A stretch of 64,000 nt of DNA from Saccharospirillaceae bacterium (lineage in GTDB: Bacteria; Pseudomonadota; Gammaproteobacteria; Pseudomonadales; Oceanobacteraceae), in the NCBI GenBank assembly GCA_022448365.1, contig JAKVCS010000004.1, forward strand, positions 544,458 to 608,457, given 5' to 3'. A program made the position numbers and the translations under genes. Shown here one piece after another: positions 11,647 through 37,134 of the stretch. Under the pieces are notes generated by a model, which saw nothing but the letters and a program-made list of their open reading frames with translations, did not search any database and was not told where the DNA came from. Positions within the stretch are counted from its first letter, which is position 1; each line of letters starts with the position of its first letter.

Positions 11647-13208
11647 CAGGCTTTCTCACTGCTGACTGCGCCAGCTCCGGTTAGAGTAAATAAATCCGTT
11701 TCGGGCGTTGCCTCATCAACTCCTGGTTGGGTTAACAGGCCTTCACCTTTAAATGCTGCCAGTGCTCTTAATCGCGCGAATTTATGCTCTACAATTTCAT
11801 TGGCATAGCCACACTGACTGCGTTGAATGGCATTTGGCTGGTGTCTTGCTTTGATTGGTAATGTCGCCAGTTCAGGAACAAATTGCGCAATAAATTCACC
11901 ATCAGGATCGAACTTCTGAGATTGCGTAATTGGATTAAAAATACGGAAGTAAGGGGCACCATCGGCGCCGGTCGATGCGCTCCATTGCCAACCGCCGTTA
12001 TTAGAGGCCAGATCAAAATCCACCAGATGACTGGCAAACCAGCTTTCGCCCCAGCGCCAGTCAATCAGTAGATGTTTGGTCAGGAACATGGCGCTGATCA
12101 TCCGCAGACGATTATGCATCCAGCCTGTTTCCAGCAATTGACGTTGTGCCGCATCGACAATTGGGTAACCGGTTTTTCCCTGGCACCAGGCATCAAAATC
12201 AGTTTTGCTGTATCGCCACGGAACCGACTCTGTGTCTGGTTTGAATGCTTTGTGTTTGTTCAGGTCGGGAAAGGCTACCAGTAAATGACGGTAAAATTCA
12301 CGCCAGATAATTTCATTAATCCAACCGTTCAAACCGGGTTCACCGTCGGTCAGCATACAAGCATTCATCTGCCAGGCACTGTATAAACACTGGCGTCCAC
12401 TGAGTAAGCCGAGGCTGAGATAACAGGATAAGCGGCTGGTGGCTGGTTTTGCCGGAAAGTCTCGCCAATTGTGATAATCGCTCGCCCTTTGCTGTAAAAA
12501 GTTCTGCAATTGCTGATGCGCCAGTTCTTCATTAATTGGCCAGAGCGAATCGACTACTTCTTCTACGCCTGCTTCATCGCCCAGCTTCTCTGCGGAGATT
12601 TGCGATACAAGCAGGTTGACCGCAGTTTCGGCTTCTTTTGTTACAAAATGGTTAGACGTTATTTGGGCTGGTTTATTAAGCGGTGGCTGCTGAAACTGGG
12701 GGAAGTGTTGACACCAGGCTTTGCGGAAGGGGGAGTACACTTTAAACATCTGTTGTTGTTTATTGAGTACTTGCCCCGGAGGAATAATACACTGGTCGTG
12801 ATAACAGAACAGCTGAGGTGAAAAAGCTCGGTTATTATCAGCCCAATGATTCAGCGCCATGTCGCGATTGATTTCATTAATCTCGTATTCGTAATTAAAG
12901 TACAGCTGATCAATTTTAAGGTCGGTACAGAGCGTTTGCAGTGCTTGGGTGTTGTCGCTGAAAGTATCGCTGTCGATGATTAACAGCGGAATATTCAGTG
13001 CCTGAAGCTGTTGCTCAAGATGCTTCATCGCATTAATGGTAAGCTGAATCAGGCGGTCGCCCATACCATGCTGGCGCCACTGTTTGCGACAAATAAAACT
13101 GACCGCAATAACGTCGATATGCTGGCCATCATTCCCCTGGCACGCATGCCACAGGGCAGGATTGTCATGTACGCGCAAGTCACGGCGGAACCAAACCATG
13201 CGTTTCAT
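11646..13208 (-). CDS. phrB: Class I CPD DNA photolyase
   Basis: WFRRDLRVHDNPAL, TSRLSCYL, WINEIIWREFY, GWMHNRLRM and DFDLASNNGGWQW motifs. Confidence 0.93.
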   Translation of the reverse strand: MKRMVWFRRDLRVHDNPALWHACQGNDGQHIDVIAVSFICRKQWRQHGMGDRLIQLTINAMKHLEQQLQALNIPLLIIDSDTFSDNTQALQTLCTDLKIDQLYFNYEYEINEINRDMALNHWADNNRAFSPQLFCYHDQCIIPPGQVLNKQQQMFKVYSPFRKAWCQHFPQFQQPPLNKPAQITSNHFVTKEAETAVNLLVSQISAEKLGDEAGVEEVVDSLWPINEELAHQQLQNFLQQRASDYHNWRDFPAKPATSRLSCYLSLGLLSGRQCLYSAWQMNACMLTDGEPGLNGWINEIIWREFYRHLLVAFPDLNKHKAFKPDTESVPWRYSKTDFDAWCQGKTGYPIVDAAQRQLLETGWMHNRLRMISAMFLTKHLLIDWRWGESWFASHLVDFDLASNNGGWQWSASTGADGAPYFRIFNPITQSQKFDPDGEFIAQFVPELATLPIKARHQPNAIQRSQCGYANEIVEHKFARLRALAAFKGEGLLTQPGVDEATPETDLFTLTGAGAVSSEKA

Positions 13209-14137
13209 TATTGTTGACCTCGCGGCAGTTCGGGGGATGCATCAGAAAATGCACCGTTGGCGGTGATGTAGGTTTTTATCCGTTCTGAAAAATCGCCGTT
13301 TAAATAATGTAAATGTTGCGGCGATGAGTCACTGGCCTGCGTACCAGAAACAAAAAATCGATATTGAGGATTATCGTCTACACAGTTCAGCCAGCGTTGG
13401 TGGTCACTCTGGAAGCCAGGTGACAAATGCAGCCAGATCTTTTTGCAATTCAGCTGCTCGCTGGCTTGCAGAATATCGGCTGGCGTCAGTTCATAACCAA
13501 AATATTCGATGTGGAACGATGCCGCGCCCAGTGCGTAGGCAACAGCGAGTAACTCCAGCTCGGCGTCAACATGATTGGCAACCAGCAGTAACACATCACC
13601 CTGATTGTGTTTCTGTTGATGCTGAATATAGTTGAGTAACTTACGTTTAAAATGCTGGATAAAAACCTGTTGGTGCAGGTGGGAATATTGTCGCAGAGTG
13701 AAGAGTACTGGCGTCAGGCATCGTTGGTAATAAACCGCCATCGGGTAGTTGGCCAGTGCTTCATTCCATAAACTGTCGAGTAATGGCAGGTTCAGATTTT
13801 CGATACCATCAAGCAATTGCTGCTGTTGCATTTGCCATTCATCGTTGGTGTTATCCAGGCTGGATTTAATATTGTCATTCAGCAATAACTTAACCTGGCG
13901 AATCGGGTAACCCTGATCAAGCCAGTAGAGGATGTGTTCAACCTGCTTAATATCCTCGTCGTTGTAAAAACGATGTCCTTTGTCGGTTCGTTGTGGCTGG
14001 ACAATACCGTAACGACGCTCCCAGGCTCGTAAGGTCGCTGGGTTAACGCCAGTCAGCCGGGCAAATTCGCGGATCGGATATAAGCCGGAAAATGAGCGTT
14101 GTATGGTCATGGTGTGTACATCGTTATCAGATGGCAT
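13208..14137 (-). CDS. MerR-family regulator of the CarH/LitR/MlrA type with a degenerate cobalamin-binding-like C-terminal domain (alternative start 14110)
   Basis: HTH YPIREFARLTGVNPATLRAWERRYG...GHRFY. The C-terminal LAVAYAL...IEYFGYELT segment aligns with the CarH Rossmann domain but lacks ExHxxG. Confidence 0.88.
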   Translation of the reverse strand: MPSDNDVHTMTIQRSFSGLYPIREFARLTGVNPATLRAWERRYGIVQPQRTDKGHRFYNDEDIKQVEHILYWLDQGYPIRQVKLLLNDNIKSSLDNTNDEWQMQQQQLLDGIENLNLPLLDSLWNEALANYPMAVYYQRCLTPVLFTLRQYSHLHQQVFIQHFKRKLLNYIQHQQKHNQGDVLLLVANHVDAELELLAVAYALGAASFHIEYFGYELTPADILQASEQLNCKKIWLHLSPGFQSDHQRWLNCVDDNPQYRFFVSGTQASDSSPQHLHYLNGDFSERIKTYITANGAFSDASPELPRGQQ

Positions 14138-15104
14138 TGCGCAGGCCCAGCTGATAAGGGTATGGGTTTAAGTACACCTGCATGTTGGCGTAGTGCTGTT
14201 GTTGCTGGTGACTGAGATGATGTTTCAGCAAGGTCAATGGCACAATTAGAGGGACAATTCCCTGGTGATAGTGCTGAATCAGATCGGTAAGCTCTTGCTT
14301 GTCGCCGGAACTGAGGCAGTTCTTCAGGTAACCCTGTAAGTGCATTAACGTATTGGTATTCATTTTACGAGACGCCGGTTTAGCAAGGGCAGCCATCAAC
14401 TGCTTAAAGTATTCTTCGGCTATTGTGTGCAGCTTTGCTTTGCTGAGGTCGGACAGTAGATGGCCAAGGCTTTTGTAGTACTGCTGGCTGTGGGCCATAA
14501 CCAGGTACTTGTATCGCGCATGAAATCCGATCAGATCTTTGGCGCTGAAGTCACTGGCCAAAAACTGTTGCCAATCGTGATATGCAAATACCCTGACCAG
14601 GAAGTTTTCACGTAAACCCGGATCATTCAATCGCCCAGCTTCCTCGACCGGCAGCAGTGGCTGTTTTTTACAGAATTCTTCAGCGTACAAACCGCGGGCG
14701 GTGCCTTCCGGCATGCCGTTATCCAAATAACGCTTCACACCAAACAAGCCGCAGCTTGGGCTTTTCTGCATAAAGATGTAACCGCACAGATTTTTGTGCT
14801 GCTCACCCTGCTCCTGACCGTAAGCGCGCAACTGATCACTGACATCAAGCTCAGTGTCACGGGTACCACGGGCAAAAACATTGGTTGTGTCTTTTGATTC
14901 GCCGACCAGCCGAATTGGTTGCCTCGGTGTGCCCATACCAATGGCGACTTCGGGGCAAAGCGGTACATAGTCAAAATACTCGGCCAACACATCGGTGCAG
15001 AATCGCGAGCGCTTATGACCACCATCAAATCGTACTTTTTGGCCCATCAGGCAGGCACTGATGCCAATCGGGATTTTCACGCTGCTGGTGTGTTGCTCGC
15101 TCAT
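14127..15104 (-). CDS. ybgA: DUF523-DUF1722 fusion (YbgA / RudS-like thiouracil or s4U desulfidase)
   Basis: GISACLMG, RFDGGHK, CPEVAIGMGTPR, KSPSCG and EEAGRLNDPGLRENF motifs, then DUF1722 FHARYKYLVMAHS; RBS GAGG precedes ATG 15104. Confidence 0.92.
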   Translation of the reverse strand: MSEQHTSSVKIPIGISACLMGQKVRFDGGHKRSRFCTDVLAEYFDYVPLCPEVAIGMGTPRQPIRLVGESKDTTNVFARGTRDTELDVSDQLRAYGQEQGEQHKNLCGYIFMQKSPSCGLFGVKRYLDNGMPEGTARGLYAEEFCKKQPLLPVEEAGRLNDPGLRENFLVRVFAYHDWQQFLASDFSAKDLIGFHARYKYLVMAHSQQYYKSLGHLLSDLSKAKLHTIAEEYFKQLMAALAKPASRKMNTNTLMHLQGYLKNCLSSGDKQELTDLIQHYHQGIVPLIVPLTLLKHHLSHQQQQHYANMQVYLNPYPYQLGLRNAI

Positions 15105-15117
15105 CTTCTCTACCTCG

Positions 15118-15220
15118 TTGTACATTGACGTTGTACATCTCTGTATAAGAAAAATTTAGCGGTATCAGGTTGTATCTGTCAAAGGTTTTGTACAAGAAAA
15201 GTGTAAAGTTGTATAAGAAA
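15118..15220 (-). promoter_or_regulatory. Sigma70-like promoter of the ybgA-merR-phrB operon with clustered TnnACA operator repeats
   Basis: Minus strand has TTGACA (15177-15182), an 18-bp spacer and TAAATT (15153-15158). TTTCTTRTACA occurs three times (plus-strand TGTA at 15142, 15189, 15210), with further TGTACA at 15119 and 15132. Confidence 0.65.
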
Positions 15221-16739: not shown

Positions 16740-16825
16740 TTGTACAACAAAATGTTAATTCTACATTGGCTGGCAAGTGTATCTTGATTTGTTGTATAGT
16801 CCAAATGTTGTATAACATTTGTATA
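16740..16825. promoter_or_regulatory. Divergent promoter region with TTGTAYA repeats and an inverted repeat
   Basis: TTGTACA at 16740; TTGTATA at 16792, 16808 and 16819 (last two 11 bp apart); AAATGTT-gtat-AACATTT at 16803-16820. Confidence 0.6.
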
Positions 16826-20305: not shown

Positions 20306-20388
20306 GCGATTTTTAGAATTGAATTGAGCGAATATGTGATTTATATCCTTTATACTAAAGCGGATTATTTCCAGTAAGGTTGCGTGTT

Positions 20389-20724
20389 ATGACGATTAAA
20401 ATCAGTGCATTAAAAAAGCGGGATCATATTGAAAAGGTGATCATACATTCTCTTGATTTATGCTTGTATCAGGCTTCCGCTATTATTGATGATAAAGAAG
20501 AATTTATCACTGACGACAAAGGTAAACTACTGCGCAGTCACAGTGTTTTATCCTTTCAGGCAATGTTCGAGAAATACCCGATTAAAAACCTGGTGGTGCG
20601 TCATACCAGTGCTTACGATGAAATGGTGGGGCAACCAGTGCGTGAGGGCAGCAATGCGATTGAAGTGCCATTTGGCAGGAATCAGCTTGGCAATCCTAAA
20701 GGCGTTACCAGTACTGAGCATTAA
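20389..20724 (+). CDS. Small conserved protein, probably DUF6482 family
   Basis: VIIHSLDLCLYQA and VVRHTSAYDEMVGQP motifs; AAGG lies ~9 nt before ATG 20389. Confidence 0.7.
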   Translation: MTIKISALKKRDHIEKVIIHSLDLCLYQASAIIDDKEEFITDDKGKLLRSHSVLSFQAMFEKYPIKNLVVRHTSAYDEMVGQPVREGSNAIEVPFGRNQLGNPKGVTSTEH

Positions 20725-20746: not shown

Positions 20747-22273
20747 TCAGAATAATGTCATTTGCTGGGAATTGCTTTGACGATTACTCTTTGCTCGACG
20801 ACGGCTCTGCTTTTTTCGAGAGCCGTGTTTTTCCCCTATTTGATTAGCTTGTTGACGAAAGTCTGTGTCTCTTACGCTGTTAATAAATTGGCGTGCTGTT
20901 CGACACGCCTCACTGAAATCAACAAGTGGTGGTGGATAGTGCCTGCCCAGAACACAGCCTGATGACTGTTGCAGTTTTTCGGGCATCAACCAAGGTTGAT
21001 GAATCCAACTGTTGGGTACGTTGCGTAACTCCGGCAACCACTGACGAATAAACGTACCAGAGGGGTCCAGTTTCTGTGCCTGCAGAGTAGGGTTATAAAT
21101 CCTGGGGATATTAATGCCGGTTGTTCCGGCCTGCATTTGGGCTTGTGGATAATGAATACCGGGTTCGTAATCAACGAATAGCTGGGCCAGAAAGGGAGCG
21201 GTAACCTGCCAGGGAAGCCACAAAGGGTAACTGGCGACCGACATTAACATGGCGCGCATACGAAAGTTAATCCAGCCATGATGGTGTAAATAGCGCATAC
21301 ACGCGTCCACCATTGGCCAACCCGTATTACCGGTTTTCCAGGCTACCAACCACTGTGGATTATAATGCTGGCGTAATTCGTTATACGCAGAGTGCAGATT
21401 ACGCCACTCCATATCCGGTTGATCTTCCAGCTTTTGAATAAAATGGCAGTGCCACCAAAGGCGACTTTCAAAGGCTTTTAAACTGTTTTTCCAATAACGT
21501 GTGGGCTGCTTCTGATGAGCTAGCTGCACCGCAGTTAATACTTCGCGCATGCTCAAACAACCGTAGGCCAGATACGGGCTCAGTCGAGAGCACGCGTGTT
21601 CAGCAGAAATTGGAGAACTGATCGACGAACGATAAAATTCACCGCGTTGCTGCAGAAAACTGTTTAATAATGCCAGACCCTGTTGCCGCCCACCATGTTG
21701 GCGTCCCGGACAGGGCAGCTGCAGCTTGCCATAATCCTGATTTATTTCGGCCAGCGGTAATTTGCAATCTCCGGTAAAGGCATGCCAATTAATGGCACTT
21801 ATCGTGGAGTGATCAGTCGGTTGAACGGCTGGCTGCTGCATAAAACGTTGCCAGTTTTTTGCCCAATGATCACGTCCGGGGTTGGGTCGAAGTACACCGA
21901 ATTGCTGGTATTGTTGCCAGTTAATCTGATGTTGCCGACACCATGCAGCGACCTGGATATCACGCTGATAGGTCCAGTTATTGCCGGTTTCCTGGTGGCT
22001 GTGCAGAGTAAATTGTCCGAGTACAGTTTTTAACTGCGCTAATAACGGAACCACATTACCCTGAAATATCTGTAGGCGGCCATCCAGTTCGTTACTCAGA
22101 TCCTGTAACGATTCTCTGACAAATTGCCATTGCCGTACGCTGGTGTCGGCTAACTGCCAATAATCCGGTTCGAGACAATAAAATGCCAATACCGGTCCTG
22201 CTTGAGCTGCCTGATGAAGTGCCTGATGATCGGTACTGCGAAGATCTCGTTTAAACCAAACCAGTTGCAGCAT
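20747..22273 (-). CDS. Photolyase/cryptochrome-family protein of the Vibrio Cry2 / ssDNA-photolyase-like type
   Basis: LVWFKRDLR, SSPISAEHACSRLSPYL, GWINFRMRAML and DYEPGIHYPQAQMQAGTTGINIPRIYNP motifs. Confidence 0.85.
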   Translation of the reverse strand: MLQLVWFKRDLRSTDHQALHQAAQAGPVLAFYCLEPDYWQLADTSVRQWQFVRESLQDLSNELDGRLQIFQGNVVPLLAQLKTVLGQFTLHSHQETGNNWTYQRDIQVAAWCRQHQINWQQYQQFGVLRPNPGRDHWAKNWQRFMQQPAVQPTDHSTISAINWHAFTGDCKLPLAEINQDYGKLQLPCPGRQHGGRQQGLALLNSFLQQRGEFYRSSISSPISAEHACSRLSPYLAYGCLSMREVLTAVQLAHQKQPTRYWKNSLKAFESRLWWHCHFIQKLEDQPDMEWRNLHSAYNELRQHYNPQWLVAWKTGNTGWPMVDACMRYLHHHGWINFRMRAMLMSVASYPLWLPWQVTAPFLAQLFVDYEPGIHYPQAQMQAGTTGINIPRIYNPTLQAQKLDPSGTFIRQWLPELRNVPNSWIHQPWLMPEKLQQSSGCVLGRHYPPPLVDFSEACRTARQFINSVRDTDFRQQANQIGEKHGSRKKQSRRRAKSNRQSNSQQMTLF

Positions 22274-23708
22274 CTTTTTCGGTCGCTATCGGAGCTGGAT
22301 AATCGGGTAGCAGTTTATCGCCACGGCTATGCTGCTGAATATCTTTGAGACTGTATTGTGCTAACTTTGGCAGCCAGAGTTTGATATGAGTCAGCTCCGG
22401 ATCGTAATTCTGCAACTGGAAATTAATGTTGAAGATACGGCCTTTGCCCGGACTGCTTCTGGGGTCCTGGCCAACGCCTGCCAGATAGGCCCAATTTCCC
22501 CAATTACTGGCGACGTCATAATCCAGTAAATGTCGCTCGAAAAAAGCAGCACCCAGACGCCAGTCGAGCTTGAGATACTGAATAAAATAGCTGGCTAGAT
22601 TTTGTCGCATGCGATTAGAGCTGTAGCCGGTGGTTATTAACTCTTTGATACCTGCATCAATTAAAGGCACACCGGTCTCGGCCTTCACCCATTGCTGCCA
22701 GTGACTGGCATTAAATGGCGGGGGGGTGAGAGGTTCTTGTTTCAGCCCCTGGTAGCGAAAAAACTTACGGCCGTAAATTCGCATGCTCCAGTGAAAATAT
22801 TCACGCCACAGTAATTCTTGTTTAAACCATTGGCTGTGTTCATTTTCACCATGTTGTTGCTCCCAACGTTCGGTCTCATGCCAGACGTTGCGCACAGACA
22901 ATGCCCCCCATGCCAGGTGAGCGCTGAGTTGTGAGGAAAAATTTAATCCACACAGCTGATTGCGACTGTCTTTATAGTGCAACAGACCGCGCGCCTGCCA
23001 AAGGTACGATGACAGATGAGCAAGACCGGCGTTTTCGCCGCCAATCAGATTGAACGACTGCCCTGGGTCCTGGTTGGCGCTGTTAGCCGTGGTGTTAAAG
23101 TCATTGTGCCAGGGAATTGAAGGAATTCGTCCATCGAAGTGATCGGAAAGATGGCTGATGGTTACCGGCGGTTTTGGTGCATCGGGGGTGATGGATTGTT
23201 TTTCAATTTTTCGACGGAATGCACTGAAAGAGGTTGGCCAGCGTTCAAATAAATGACCGATCTGTTGTCCCTCGAACAACGTTTGGTTGTTATACAGCGT
23301 TAGCGCTATGTTCTGTTGCTCCAGCTGTTCCAGCCAATGACTCTCCTCTGGTGCTTGAGCATGTTGAGTAAATACCTGCTGCATACCTTGTTTTTTCCAG
23401 TCACGGAATAATTCAGCAGGCTGCTGATAAACCATTTTAAAATCGATGTTCTGCAGTGCCAGTTGCCGTTGTAAATCAATTAAGCAGGCACGCAAAAAAC
23501 GTGCTTTTGCCAGTCCAATCCGGCCGGTATCTGCTTTACACTGAGGCCGGACAGTTGAAGTAAAAGGTGTTTCTTCATCCACGTTAAGCCAGAACGGCGG
23601 CATAATGAAAACAACCCGCAATGGAAGTCCGGCTTGTTTGGCTAATGAAAACCCCGGGTTGTCGTTAAGACGCAAATCGTGACGTAACCAGATTACATTA
23701 AAATTCAT
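22251..23708 (-). CDS. Cryptochrome DASH
   Basis: WLRHDLRLNDN, GGENAGLAHLSSY, ELLWREYF, GYSSNRMRQNLAS and DYDVASNWGNWAYLAGVGQDPR motifs. Confidence 0.9.
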   Translation of the reverse strand: MNFNVIWLRHDLRLNDNPGFSLAKQAGLPLRVVFIMPPFWLNVDEETPFTSTVRPQCKADTGRIGLAKARFLRACLIDLQRQLALQNIDFKMVYQQPAELFRDWKKQGMQQVFTQHAQAPEESHWLEQLEQQNIALTLYNNQTLFEGQQIGHLFERWPTSFSAFRRKIEKQSITPDAPKPPVTISHLSDHFDGRIPSIPWHNDFNTTANSANQDPGQSFNLIGGENAGLAHLSSYLWQARGLLHYKDSRNQLCGLNFSSQLSAHLAWGALSVRNVWHETERWEQQHGENEHSQWFKQELLWREYFHWSMRIYGRKFFRYQGLKQEPLTPPPFNASHWQQWVKAETGVPLIDAGIKELITTGYSSNRMRQNLASYFIQYLKLDWRLGAAFFERHLLDYDVASNWGNWAYLAGVGQDPRSSPGKGRIFNINFQLQNYDPELTHIKLWLPKLAQYSLKDIQQHSRGDKLLPDYPAPIATEKDAATGLV

Positions 23709-23895
23709 CTTCGACCTGACCTGCCTGACATAAATTCGGTGTGACTGATTGAGTTTTTTGTTTCGATTTTCTGCGGCATGCGTCACTGCAATATTTCACT
23801 TCTTCCCAGCAACGAAGCCATTTTTTTCGCCAGGCAAAGGGTCGTTTGCATTGCTGACACATTTTCTCGGGTAGGTTTAATTTTTTATGAGCCAT
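23698..23895 (-). CDS. DUF2256-family small Cys-rich protein
   Basis: KKLNLPEKMCQQCKRPFAWRKKW...VKYCSDACR. Confidence 0.92.
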   Translation of the reverse strand: MAHKKLNLPEKMCQQCKRPFAWRKKWLRCWEEVKYCSDACRRKSKQKTQSVTPNLCQAGQVEDEF

Positions 23896-23897
23896 GG

Positions 23898-25427
23898 CTA
23901 AAGTGCCTCAATATGATCAAGAAGGTATTCGGCACGATTGATGATTGCCTGTTGTTTATCGTCGGCCATTTTTGCCCAGCTACGGTAGATCATGGCCATG
24001 CGTGGATTTTTCTCGAATTGTGGCCGATGCCTCTGAATAAAGTGCCAATACAGGCTGTTAAAAGGGCAGCTGTCTTCTTCGGTGGAAGTCTTTACGGAGT
24101 AACTGCAGTGTTTGCAGTAATCCGACATTTTATTAATGTAATTGCCTGATGCAGCATACGGTTTACTCGCCAGGCGACCACCGTCTGCATGCATTACCAT
24201 GCCCAGAGTATTCGGTAGTTCCACCCAGTCATACGCATCGGCATACACGGCCAGATACCAGTCGCAAACCTGCTGTGGCGTGATACCCGCCAGCAGTGAG
24301 AAATTGCCAGTGACCATCAAACGCTGAATATGATGGGCATAGGCATTACGAAAAGTATTTTCGAAACACTCGCTCATGCATTTCATACGCGTATTACCAT
24401 GCCAGAAATAGCCTGGCAGCTGGCGCTGGTTGTCCAGCTGATTTTGTTGTCCATAGTGCGGCATTAGCAGCCAGTAAATACCGCGTATATATTCACGCCA
24501 GCCAATGATCTGACGAATAAAGCCCTCTGCAGCGTTTAACGGAGCTTTGCCTTGCTGATAGGCCAGTTCCACTTGCTGGCAGACTTCCAGCGGTGTTAAT
24601 AAACCGCAATTCAGATAGGGTGAAATCAGGCTGTGGAATAAGGTGTGTTCCCCCATGACCATGGCGTCTTGATAATCGCCGTAATGTGGCAACCGATATT
24701 GAACAAAATGGCTGAGTTCGGCCAGTGCCTGCTCCCGGGTTGTGGCCCAGCTAAAGTGCTCCAGAGTACCGGGGTGTTGGGAAAACTCCTGTTCGACCAG
24801 CGCCATCACCTCGCGATCAATGTCATCGTGTTGGTGACAAATACGGGGAACGAGGGCCACCTCTCCTTTGTAGCGTTTGCGGTTATCCTGATCGAAATTC
24901 CATTGGCCTCCGCAGGGTTCGTCCTGCTCCATCAGTAGCCCGGTTTTGCGACGCATCTCACGGTAAAAGTACTCCATCCGCAGCTGCTTACGGCCGCTGG
25001 CCCAGTCACGGAATTCTTCCTGGGAGCTTATAAAGCGATCATCCTGATAACTTTCGACGGCCAGAGACAACTGATTCTGCCAATCTTCGTCGATGGTTTG
25101 TTGCAACCTGTACTCACCGCATTCAGTCACGACTACGGCCTCGATGTCGTGCTCAAAACAAACGGCTTGTATAACTTCTATCAACCGTGTGTGAGCGCTG
25201 TCTGACTGATATTTATGGTAATGAACACGCCATCCGGCTGCCTCGAGTTGCCTGCTGAAGTGTCGCATTGCACTGAACAACAGCGCTATTTTCTGCTTAT
25301 GATGAGGGACATATTGTGCTTCTTCGGCGACCTCGGCCATGACCAGCATGTCCTGCTCAGGATTCAGTGCCCGGAGACTGGCGAGGTTGGTTGTCAGTTG
25401 ATCAGCAAGTATCAGCCCAAGCTTCAT
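23898..25427 (-). CDS. Prokaryotic (6-4) photolyase / FeS-BCP (CryPro; Agrobacterium PhrB / Rhodobacter CryB type)
   Basis: LILADQL, HHKQKIALLFSAMRHF, LRMEYFYREMR, YAHHIQRLM and KPYAASGNYINKMSDYCKHC...CPFNSLYW, with the four 4Fe-4S Cys positions present. Confidence 0.93.
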   Translation of the reverse strand: MKLGLILADQLTTNLASLRALNPEQDMLVMAEVAEEAQYVPHHKQKIALLFSAMRHFSRQLEAAGWRVHYHKYQSDSAHTRLIEVIQAVCFEHDIEAVVVTECGEYRLQQTIDEDWQNQLSLAVESYQDDRFISSQEEFRDWASGRKQLRMEYFYREMRRKTGLLMEQDEPCGGQWNFDQDNRKRYKGEVALVPRICHQHDDIDREVMALVEQEFSQHPGTLEHFSWATTREQALAELSHFVQYRLPHYGDYQDAMVMGEHTLFHSLISPYLNCGLLTPLEVCQQVELAYQQGKAPLNAAEGFIRQIIGWREYIRGIYWLLMPHYGQQNQLDNQRQLPGYFWHGNTRMKCMSECFENTFRNAYAHHIQRLMVTGNFSLLAGITPQQVCDWYLAVYADAYDWVELPNTLGMVMHADGGRLASKPYAASGNYINKMSDYCKHCSYSVKTSTEEDSCPFNSLYWHFIQRHRPQFEKNPRMAMIYRSWAKMADDKQQAIINRAEYLLDHIEAL

Positions 25428-25447
25428 AACTCACTCTTGTATTAATG

Positions 25448-25486
25448 ATGTATAGGTAATGTATAGGTATTGGCTTTTTTAGTCCA
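25448..25486 (-). promoter_or_regulatory. Promoter of the cryptochrome/photolyase operon overlapped by a perfect 11-bp tandem repeat
   Basis: (ATGTATAGGTA)x2 at 25448-25469; minus strand has TGGACT (25481-25486), a 17-bp spacer and TACATT (25458-25463). Confidence 0.7.
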
Positions 25487-25596
25487 GAGTCCTGCGTCTG
25501 AGTCACCCTCTTTGTGATGGTGAAACTGTCCTTCCTGATAAATTTGACTTTTATCTATGACAGCCGGGCAGTAACCTAACGCCGTGATGATGAGAG

Positions 25597-27126
25597 GTGA
25601 CTATGTCTGAAGAAGTTCTGATAATTGCAGCCTATGGCGTGTTGGCGTTGCTTGGTGCGCTGGCCATTTTTCTACTGGCCACTCTGCTATGGCTGGTCAT
25701 GGCGTATTTGGTCGATGTAACCCAAACCCGTCATACCGTGAGACGGAATTTTCCGGTTATTGGTCGATTTCGTTATTTCTTTGAACATCTGGGGGAATTT
25801 TTCCGCCAGTATTTTTTTGCCATGGACCGTGAGGAAATGCCTTTCAACCGAGCTGAGCGTGGCTGGGCTTATAAAGCGGCCAAAAAGGTGAACACCACCG
25901 TCGCTTTTGGTTCCACCCGTCGACTGGATTTACCGGGTACCGTGTTGTTTGTGAACAGTCCATTCCCGGCATTAAAAAAGACATTTGCGGAACCGGCGGA
26001 AATCACTATTGGTGAAAACTGTAGGCATCCTTACACCACCAAGTCGCTGATTAATATTTCCGGGATGAGTTATGGTGCGCTGTCGAAACCGGCGGTTCGG
26101 GCATTGTCTCACGGTGCAAAACAAGCAGGTTGCTGGATCAACAGTGGTGAAGGTGGAGTTTCGCCTTATCACCTGGAGAGTGGCTGTGATCTGGTGGCCC
26201 AGATTGGTACCGCCAAATACGGTGTGCGTACGCCGCTGGGTGAACTGGACGAGGGGAAATTAGCCACCATTGCCGCCCATGAGCAGGTACGCATGTTTGA
26301 GATTAAATTGAGCCAGGGGGCAAAACCCGGTAAAGGTGGAATGTTACCGGGTGCTAAAGTCTCTGCTGAGATTGCGGCTATCCGCGGCATTCCCGAAGGC
26401 GAGGACTCCATCAGCCCGAACGGTCATCCGGATATCCGCTCGGTGGATGATTTGCTGGACATGATTGCCCGGCTGCGCGCGTTAACCGGTAAACCTGTGG
26501 GTTTTAAAACAGTACTCGGCGGCATGGATTGGATTCGCGACTTGTGTCACGAAATTATGCTGCGGGGCATTGACTCTGCGCCTGATTTTATCACGCTTGA
26601 CGGCGCCGAAGGTGGAACCGGTGCGGCACCACAGCCGCTGATGGATTATATGGGGCTGCCTTTAAATCAGGCGTTACCTATGTTGATCGATACGTTGGAT
26701 GAATTTAATTTGCGCCCGCGTATTCGTGTGATTGCCTCGGGTAAGTTGATTAATCCAGATCGGGTTGCCTGGGCTTTGTGTACGGGGGCGGACTTTGTCG
26801 TTTCGGCCCGTGGTTTTATGTTTGCGTTGGGTTGTATCCAGGCACTGCAGTGCAACTCGAATACCTGTCCGACCGGTATTACGACACACGACCCTAAATT
26901 GCAGAACGGCCTGGTGGTTAACGATAAGGCGCGTCGCGTCGCACAATACGTTGACTCCATGATTCAGGAGGTTGGGGTGATTGCGCATTCCTGCGGTGTT
27001 GATGAACCTCGTCGCTTGAAACGCACTCATGCCCGCATGGTTCAGCCCAGCGGTGCTGCCGTGTTGCTGTCGGATTTATACGCCAGTCACGATTTTCGAC
27101 CGGATGGCGACTTTCGTCATGGTTGA
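25597..27126 (+). CDS. FMN-binding glutamate-synthase-family protein (stand-alone COG0069 type, N-terminal membrane anchor)
   Basis: ISGMSYGALS, NSGEGG, EIKLSQGAKPGKGG, PVGFK, DGAEGGTGAAP and GCIQALQCNSNTCPTGITT motifs. Confidence 0.93.
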   Translation: MTMSEEVLIIAAYGVLALLGALAIFLLATLLWLVMAYLVDVTQTRHTVRRNFPVIGRFRYFFEHLGEFFRQYFFAMDREEMPFNRAERGWAYKAAKKVNTTVAFGSTRRLDLPGTVLFVNSPFPALKKTFAEPAEITIGENCRHPYTTKSLINISGMSYGALSKPAVRALSHGAKQAGCWINSGEGGVSPYHLESGCDLVAQIGTAKYGVRTPLGELDEGKLATIAAHEQVRMFEIKLSQGAKPGKGGMLPGAKVSAEIAAIRGIPEGEDSISPNGHPDIRSVDDLLDMIARLRALTGKPVGFKTVLGGMDWIRDLCHEIMLRGIDSAPDFITLDGAEGGTGAAPQPLMDYMGLPLNQALPMLIDTLDEFNLRPRIRVIASGKLINPDRVAWALCTGADFVVSARGFMFALGCIQALQCNSNTCPTGITTHDPKLQNGLVVNDKARRVAQYVDSMIQEVGVIAHSCGVDEPRRLKRTHARMVQPSGAAVLLSDLYASHDFRPDGDFRHG

Positions 27127-36747: not shown

Positions 36748-36763
36748 TATTGAATGCCGGTAT

Positions 36764-36797
36764 ATGTTTTTATATACAGTACTGTACAAATAACCAG
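36764..36797. promoter_or_regulatory. Tandem LexA (SOS) boxes upstream of imuA
   Basis: CTGTACAAATAACCAG (36782-36797, perfect CTG-N10-CAG) and ATGTTTTTATATACAG (36764-36779, one mismatch), 2 bp apart. Confidence 0.85.
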
Positions 36798-37134
36798 TAT
36801 TCAATGGTTGGGAACACAACCAACCATGAGATGCCTGAAATGACAGCTGCTTTGTTATTCCGGTATCTATTGACGTTTATCACCAGTTGCAGCTTTAAGA
36901 TTTTAATAATGATATTCGATTAATTTACAATCCTGCATATAAACTCCGGAAACTCAGGTACTTAGAGACGTAAGCAAGGCCCGGTAAGGATTTTTATAAG
37001 ATGCCATGCTTAGCCGCTATAACTCTGTACTTTTGTCTGATTAGCGTCTTTAATTCGTGAACAAGGTTAATTTATATATTTATCTTTTGATAAACCGAGG
37101 TTTATCAATTGTTCCGAGTCTGCAGTAGTTGTCA

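Follow-up and report, generated by a model that had tools for sequence, protein, structure and literature searches.

The locus considered here raises a simple question: why should an operon of photolyase and cryptochrome genes be preceded by a perfect tandem duplication with an 11-bp unit, and which protein might that duplication serve? The operon lies in a window of 64,000 nucleotides from a Saccharospirillaceae bacterium – the window being the whole stretch of DNA analysed, numbered from its first letter – and the preliminary description of the window had matched the duplication to the operator pattern of CarH. Taking all the evidence together we consider it likely, with good confidence, that a 33-bp block at 25437-25469, which contains the duplication, is an operator of the LitR/CarH family, and that the repression exerted there is relieved by a LOV protein.

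The genes at issue are three, all co-directional on the minus strand. The first (23898..25427), whose ATG stands at 25427, encodes a 509-aa protein of the FeS-BCP/CryB/(6-4)-photolyase type with a DPRP domain (Pfam PF04244, E = 4.9e-78). The second (22251..23786) encodes a DASH-type cryptochrome with Pfam photolyase domains (357 bits to TIGR02765, for which the cut-off is 317), and its end is overlapped by the start of the third (20747..22273), which encodes a further member of the photolyase/cryptochrome family (PF03441 and PF00875). A DUF6482 gene (20380-20724, plus strand) converges upon the end of the operon. In a search of genome contigs the FeS-BCP protein matched mainly distant genes of alpha- and betaproteobacteria; what the search did provide was the genus of the window, Bacterioplanoides.

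A tandem repeat over a candidate promoter

The duplication had been described as a head-to-tail pair on the minus strand whose 11-bp unit fits the CarH pattern, and on both counts the description holds. The unit, TACCTATACAT, occurs twice in tandem at 25448-25469; Tandem Repeats Finder reports a period of 11, 2.0 copies and 100% matches at this position, where a general repeat search had missed the pair. DR1 (25459..25469, minus strand) contributes its 3' half to a -10-like hexamer, while DR2 (25448..25458, minus strand) lies over the predicted transcription start region. Both units conform to the CarH repeat as published, nnnnTnnACAn (PMC9304148), and to its stricter form nAnnTnnACAn (PMC8156234), so that the site has the hallmark of a CarH/LitR tandem operator: at least two head-to-tail units of 11 bp in which position 5 is T, positions 8-10 read ACA and position 2 is A. 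A degenerate third unit, dr3 (CATTAATACAA; 25437..25447, minus strand), follows in the same 11-bp register and retains A2 and the ACA, with T5 changed to A.

The duplication had also been placed on the -10 box of the operon. Read on the minus strand, the layout is TGGACT-aaaaaagccaataccta-TACATT: a -35-like hexamer (25481..25486), a spacer of 17 nt (25480-25464) and a putative -10 hexamer (25458..25463) that straddles the junction of DR1 and DR2. The two hexamers match at only 8 of 12 positions, and a scan for sigma-70 consensus promoters makes no call there. Among the 15 genomes that carry the operator (see below), a hexamer of the form [CG]TG[GA][AC]n stands 21 nt ahead of the DR1 hexamer (20 in G020) in ten – G000, which is the genome of the window, G002, G003, G008, G011, G013, G016, G019, G020 and G022 – and the -10 position reads TACATT, TACAAT or TACACT in 11. 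Because the -35-like and -10-like positions are both conserved in relatives, the proposed placement of the repeat upon the -10 gains support, and it is from this conservation that we infer where the promoter lies.

A scan of the intergenic region against Rfam gave no match, and no sigma-E/ChrR motif (TGATC-N16-18-CGTAW) was seen by eye in 25428-25596. Between the operator and a divergent Glu_synthase-like gene (25597-27126) there is a block at 25525-25580, reading ATAGATAAAAGTCAAA...GTCAGGAAAGACAGTTT on the minus strand, that is conserved among the five Bacterioplanoides genomes. It is probably the promoter or control region of the Glu_synthase-like gene, which stands beside the FeS-BCP gene only within Bacterioplanoides.

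Conservation and distribution of the motif

A match to the double pattern is by itself of no significance in the window: one match was found where 0.16 were expected, at least one occurred in 16 of 100 shuffles, and single units (allowing up to two mismatches) are no commoner in the window than chance would have them. The weight of the argument therefore falls upon conservation in relatives and upon the spacing of the motif across the genome.

Orthologs of the FeS-BCP gene are present in 24 of 41 related genomes. In 15 of these, which represent six genera or more, the start codon is preceded at 40-80 nt by two tandem units; they are the genomes in which the FeS-BCP protein is at least 63% identical, and the nine with more distant FeS-BCP genes have no motif upstream. 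Outside the units the intergenic DNA of the 15 genomes is not alignable. Within the units, 30 in all, the consensus positions are constrained (T1 in 23, A2 in 27, T5 in 29, R6 in 30, T7 in 30, A8 in 25, C9 in 30 and A10 in 28), and positions 3, 4 and 11 vary freely. Consensus positions that are kept at orthologous promoters while their neighbours change are the pattern of a protein-binding site, and indicate selection rather than recent duplication. The ACA in the dr3 register is kept in all five Bacterioplanoides genomes and is not conserved outside the genus. One strain that shares the operator of the window is B. pacificum KCTC 42424.

Genomes of four other genera (G016, G022, G008, G020 and G013, at L008, L009, L010, L013 and L007 respectively) carry a box in inverted orientation, TGTATA, at 12-14 nt past DR2; in G013 a direct TATACA box is present as well. 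The T(A)TACA-N12-14-TGTATA arrangement of these relatives recalls the N12 site of Pseudomonas, and the architecture of the operator seems to vary between genera.

Across the 3.9-Mb genome, same-strand pairs of the hexamer T[AG]TACA show a clear bias toward a distance of 11 bp: nine pairs have this spacing, against 0-3 at each other spacing up to 40 bp. The nine pairs represent eight sites, one being palindromic and hence counted twice; for the strictly non-palindromic TATACA, five of the ten pairs within 30 bp are spaced at 11. The 18-bp inverted arrangement, of the Pseudomonas N12 type, was also sought genome-wide and shows no preference. All eight spacing-11 sites are intergenic. They stand before the FeS-BCP operon (DR1/DR2), before a renalase-like/CbiX operon in the light cluster discussed below, before genes for a glutathione peroxidase, a 69-aa SutA-like protein (here as four tandem units) and a DUF4397 lipoprotein, before sdhC in the sdhC-gltA intergenic region, and between the divergent pairs DUF6482/DnaJ-related and ubiD/DUF423. 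Clusters of at least three hexamers number four in the whole genome, and two of them are in the light cluster of the window.

Several of the sites outside the window merit description. At C23:24671-24933 the units TATACA, TATACA, TATGCA and TATACA directly precede the SutA-like gene, whose product carries a SutA RNA-polymerase-binding domain (PF20661); an exact TRTACA-N5-TRTACA lies 40-165 bp upstream, in the orientation of the gene, in nine of the ten related genomes that have it, from which it follows that the SutA-like factor may be controlled by light. At C1:344894-345976 a second DUF6482 gene is divergent with a DnaJ-related gene, with TGTACA-N5-TGTACA between them, and DUF6482 may belong to the light regulon. 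The sdhC, ubiD/DUF423, glutathione peroxidase and DUF4397 lipoprotein sites are at C23:525850-525866, C34:96545-96561, C23:571408-571424 and C23:865602-865618, respectively; the ubiD/DUF423 site is identical in sequence in four Bacterioplanoides genomes.

The spacing scan also returned a site at 36773, TATACAGTACTGTACA, which resembles a LexA box, lies before imuA-imuB-dnaE2 and was set aside as unrelated. In its surroundings (36760-36800) TATATACAGTACTGTACAAATAACCAGTA precedes an imuA-like gene that is followed by imuB-like and dnaE2-like ones, and looks like the LexA box of an SOS mutagenesis cassette.

The same pattern was counted in the relatives. TRTACA-N5-TRTACA is found 101 times in 16 genomes that encode LitR regulators, against six for a reversed control, and 28 times in the remaining 25 of the 41 genomes, against 20. 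Enrichment of the pattern is confined to the 16 genomes with an ortholog of the window's MerR protein, a paralog of it and a short LOV protein, a co-occurrence that is confounded by phylogeny in that the motif-free genomes are also the more distant ones.

Candidate regulators and alternative explanations

The nature of the protein that would recognise the repeat is the next issue. The preliminary description had nominated the MerR-family protein encoded at 13208, some 11 kb away, as repressor of the operon. This 309-aa protein, here called LitR-1 (13208..14137, minus strand), is encoded in a light cluster that comprises rudS/ybgA, the MerR gene itself, phrB and genes for a desaturase, a SnoaL protein, an SDR, an FAD oxidase and a DUF1365 protein, and that resembles the pmlR1/pplR1 light cluster of Pseudomonas. 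Its MerR-type domain is clear (PF13411, E = 1.7e-19). Among solved structures the DNA-binding domain is closest to that of Thermus thermophilus CarH (5c8d, E = 4e-13), with Myxococcus xanthus CarA also matched; residues 19-78, the helix-turn-helix segment, share about 70% identity with a LitR-type protein of Pseudomonas putida, and the alignment with true CarH proteins runs over the full length of LitR-1. An AlphaFold (AF2) model (pLDDT 87.8, pTM 0.80) has the four-helix bundle and the Rossmann-like C-terminal fold; in Foldseek its top matches are 5c8e, 5c8d and 5c8f, all full-length CarH, and it superposes upon isolated cobalamin-binding domain entries with TM scores of 0.70-0.75.

The ligands of the cofactor are another matter. 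Wx9EH, the motif that caps the adenosyl group, is absent from LitR-1, from all its close relatives and from the Pseudomonas LitRs, by regular expression and by alignment. For the lower-axial motif ExHxxG, LitR-1 contains no [ED]xHxxG, and the motif is likewise absent from the close relatives and the Pseudomonas LitRs. Both motifs are present in several homologs that carry Pfam B12-binding domains (Wx9EH in six of the 11 in the alignment). LitR-1 itself reaches 13 bits for the B12-binding family PF02310, where the cut-off is 32, has no match to PF02607, and gives 61 bits with the NCBIfam CarH model, where the cut-off is 400. As modelled, then, LitR-1 is a CarH fold without B12 ligands. Since it has neither motif it is not CarH in the strict sense (class I, an AdoCbl photoreceptor), and with motifs and domain missing, light is probably not sensed through adenosylcobalamin.

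The genome also has boxes of the same kind at the promoter of LitR-1 itself. The promoter of the rudS(ybgA)-litR-phrB operon (15119..15215, minus strand) has T[AG]TACA boxes at 15210-15215, 15189-15194, 15142-15147, 15132-15137 and 15119-15124, arranged around TTGACA (15177-15182) and TAAATT (15153-15158). Four boxes are conserved in 16 of 16 genomes as two pairs at 21-22 bp spacing, one pair upstream of and adjoining TTGACT and the other between the -10 and the ATG. In the same cluster the renalase-like/CbiX operon has TATACA-N5-TATACA-N10-TATACA at its promoter (16793..16825, minus strand); in 13 of the 16 genomes, G000 included, an exact tandem site recurs upstream of the MerR gene at a distance of 2.6-3.2 kb, a position that in G000 corresponds to this promoter. 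The longest open reading frame of rudS/ybgA begins at an ATG at 15125, inside a conserved TGTACA box; alignment with relatives points instead to the ATG at 15103, which follows GAGGTAGAGAAG, as the true start. Orthologs of LitR-1 (E of 1e-67 or below) are encoded in all 15 of the genomes with the operator and in none of the nine that have an FeS-BCP gene and lack the operator.

There is, in addition, a paralog. LitR-2, of 308 aa, is encoded outside the window (C23:1153315-1154241); it is 35% identical to LitR-1 over residues 20-144 of the latter, and both have the recognition helix TGVNxxTLRAWERRY. Divergently beside its gene is that of a short LOV protein of 151 aa (C23:1152686-1153141), which carries QDCRFLQAGDRDQ with the adduct cysteine and matches the structure of a Pseudomonas short LOV protein (7r5n) with E = 3e-54. 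The genomes with the short LOV gene are precisely the 16 that encode both LitRs, and in every one the LOV gene adjoins that of LitR-2. Given that LitR-2 shares the recognition helix and is encoded beside the LOV gene, the MerR protein at 13208 may not be the only or the main binder. The original nomination of that protein is therefore kept in modified form: a CarH-type DNA-binding domain, a CarH fold, boxes at its own promoter and the co-occurrence of orthologs all speak for it as a repressor of the operon, while the absent motifs remove the notion of a B12-dependent CarH and the paralog removes certainty as to its being sole or principal binder.

Could the repeat be something other than an operator of this family? 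That the units are identical even at non-consensus positions, both here and in the closest relative, and that the match is not significant in the window, might be taken to mean chance or a recent slippage duplication with no function; yet 13 other genomes have units that diverge from each other at positions 3, 4 and 11 and keep the consensus positions, a pattern that rules this explanation out. We also think it highly improbable that the block is promoter sequence and nothing more – a -10, a start site and a leader, with no repressor. DR1 does overlap the -10-like hexamer, strings like TGTATAAT resemble extended -10 elements, and TATAAT is present on the opposite strand of the ubiD/DUF423 site, but a promoter has no need of one hexamer twice at exactly 11 bp; DR2, which is downstream of the -10, is conserved as well as DR1, and the spacing peak and the LitR-linked enrichment would be left unexplained. 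Another alternative is a different class of regulator, unrelated to light. Response regulators of the OmpR/PhoB type likewise bind direct repeats with an 11-bp period: the PhoP box is (T/G)GTTTA-N5-(T/G)GTTTA, and other boxes of this period exist. Read on the plus strand the repeat is TGTATA-N5-TGTATA, which resembles the PhoP box, and one of the eight genomic sites is in the sdhC-gltA region, a classical target of ArcA in E. coli. A site for a PhoP-, ArcA- or PhoB-like protein is nonetheless hard to reconcile with a hexamer that is the footprinted half-site of LitR, with an A2 conserved as in the CarH repeat, with boxes that fill the litR promoter, with an enrichment that tracks LitR and LOV across 41 genomes, and with targets that include photolyases, glutathione peroxidase and the light cluster; it too has very little probability in our estimation.

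More serious is the suggestion that the operator is real and that its main or only binder is the LOV-adjacent LitR-2 rather than the protein at 13208. LitR-2 has the recognition helix of LitR-1 and adjoins the short LOV gene, and in Pseudomonas mendocina binding to the pmlR1 operon promoter was demonstrated for the LOV-adjacent PmlR2 (PMC9758184). Against this, the gene of LitR-1 belongs to the light cluster, and LitR-1 has the boxes at its own promoter; in P. putida the published account (PMC9758184) treats the cluster-encoded PplR1 as the main regulator; and the two proteins could both bind. Because the paralogs are equally distributed among genomes, distribution does not separate them. On balance we find it unlikely, though well worth keeping in mind, that LitR-2 takes the leading part or the only one.

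A candidate light switch and its relatives

With these alternatives weighed, we return to the LitR/CarH-family operator. The tandem repeat very probably functions as the docking site of a repressor, a judgement that draws on its sequence and conservation. The operator would consist of two perfect and one degenerate 11-bp repeats, with a family consensus of TAyyTATACAn. In the dark an oligomer of LitR – LitR-1 (13208-14137), LitR-2 (C23:1153315-1154241) or both – would set a winged-helix domain upon every repeat, in the manner of CarH, and would cover the three-gene photolyase operon from the -10 to about +15 (DR1, DR2 and dr3), so blocking RNA polymerase. Under blue light the short LOV protein, with its FMN, would form the flavin-cysteine adduct, bind LitR and strip it from the DNA, by the mechanism demonstrated for PmlR2 and PmSB-LOV in P. 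mendocina. The photolyase operon would then be transcribed together with the rudS-litR-phrB-furan-lipid and renalase-like/CbiX operons, which have the same boxes. The characterised B12-less LitRs of Pseudomonas bind N12 sites and not 11-bp tandems, so that the oligomer which tandem binding would call for is, in the case of LitR-1, a supposition.

A bolder form of the proposal treats the system as a hybrid that joins the DNA-binding mode of class I to the signal input of class II: a CarH-fold repressor whose B12 ligands have been lost, which is still bound head-to-tail on 11-bp tandems, in the CarH manner, receives the light signal by way of a distinct short LOV protein and, in the family to which Bacterioplanoides, Bacterioplanes, Thalassolituus and Oceanobacter belong, governs a regulon that extends beyond photorepair. 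That regulon would include the SutA-like protein, glutathione peroxidase, the DUF4397 lipoprotein and the DUF6482/DnaJ-related genes, and might include sdhCDAB and ubiD as well. Were this true, light would retune global transcription and respiration. We advance the hybrid tentatively, as somewhat less likely than not.

The more modest proposal already has consequences. Marine bacteria of the Oceanospirillales type, among which no light switch is known to have been characterised, would gain one with a concrete operator open to testing and a regulon that is conserved. Two branches of the LitR/CarH family are also brought together, the site being like that of the B12-dependent CarH and the regulator and likely LOV partner like those of the B12-independent Pseudomonas system. 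If binding occurs as envisaged, tandem-repeat recognition would be possible without B12-driven tetramerisation, and the compact set of promoter, repressor and LOV protein could serve as a blue-light genetic tool. In biological terms the switch varies a known theme in a way that was to be expected.

How, then, does it compare with the systems that are known? CarH operators overlap the -35 or the -10 (PMC9304148, PMC8156234), and contain three full repeats in T. thermophilus and four in Bacillus megaterium; in the Myxococcales, binding extends to operators in which pseudo-repeats accompany one or two full repeats (PMC9304148). The site described here shares with these the tandem 11-bp nAnnTnnACAn and the combination of full repeats with a pseudo-repeat, and LitR-1 has a MerR-type winged helix whose nearest solved counterpart is that of CarH and, as predicted, the CarH fold over the whole protein. 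Unlike CarH, LitR-1 has no Wx9EH, no ExHxxG and no B12-binding Pfam domain above threshold; the targets here are photolyases and cryptochromes whereas those of CarH are carotenoid genes; and, unlike the operators of T. thermophilus and B. megaterium, this one has only two full repeats.

At the family level, and at that level only, the system may be likened to the class IV LitR VCA0056 of Vibrio cholerae, another MerR-like regulator found with photolyase and cryptochrome genes. The VCA0056 gene adjoins phr and is needed for the transcriptional response to blue light; no binding site was defined for it, and the signal proposed is reactive oxygen species (PMC5241685).

Closer parallels are offered by the class II LitRs of Pseudomonas, namely PplR1-3 with PpSB-LOV in P. 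putida and PmlR1-2 with PmSB-LOV in P. mendocina. According to PMC9758184, which is also the source used here for the P. putida consensus, T(G/A)TACA is the footprinted half-site of PplR1 and PmlR2, and the full site is an inverted pair, T(G/A)TACA-N12-TGTA(C/T)A, with an 18-bp period. In P. mendocina PmlR2 is bound by PmSB-LOV upon illumination and then no longer binds DNA, and cryB is among the light-induced transcription units, as are phrB and ufaM (PMC9758184). The present system has the same half-site; two B12-less LitR paralogs, one in the cluster and the other beside a short LOV gene with the adduct cysteine; a cluster of the same make-up (rudS/ybgA-litR-phrB-SDR-FAD oxidase-ufaM); a putative regulon that includes cryB (FeS-BCP) and phrB; and two sites at the litR operon, the first near the -35 and the second in the stretch from the transcription start to the ATG. 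It differs from the N12 site in that its repeats are direct and spaced by 11 bp (by 21-22 bp at the litR promoter), while the 18-bp spacing shows no peak, and the proteins are only 30-36% identical to the Pseudomonas LitRs. Lacking both the B12 motifs and the N12 architecture, the system is neither CarH in the strict sense nor an example of the published class II site; it looks, rather, like a CarH operator served by a regulator and partner that resemble the LitR/short-LOV switch of Pseudomonas.
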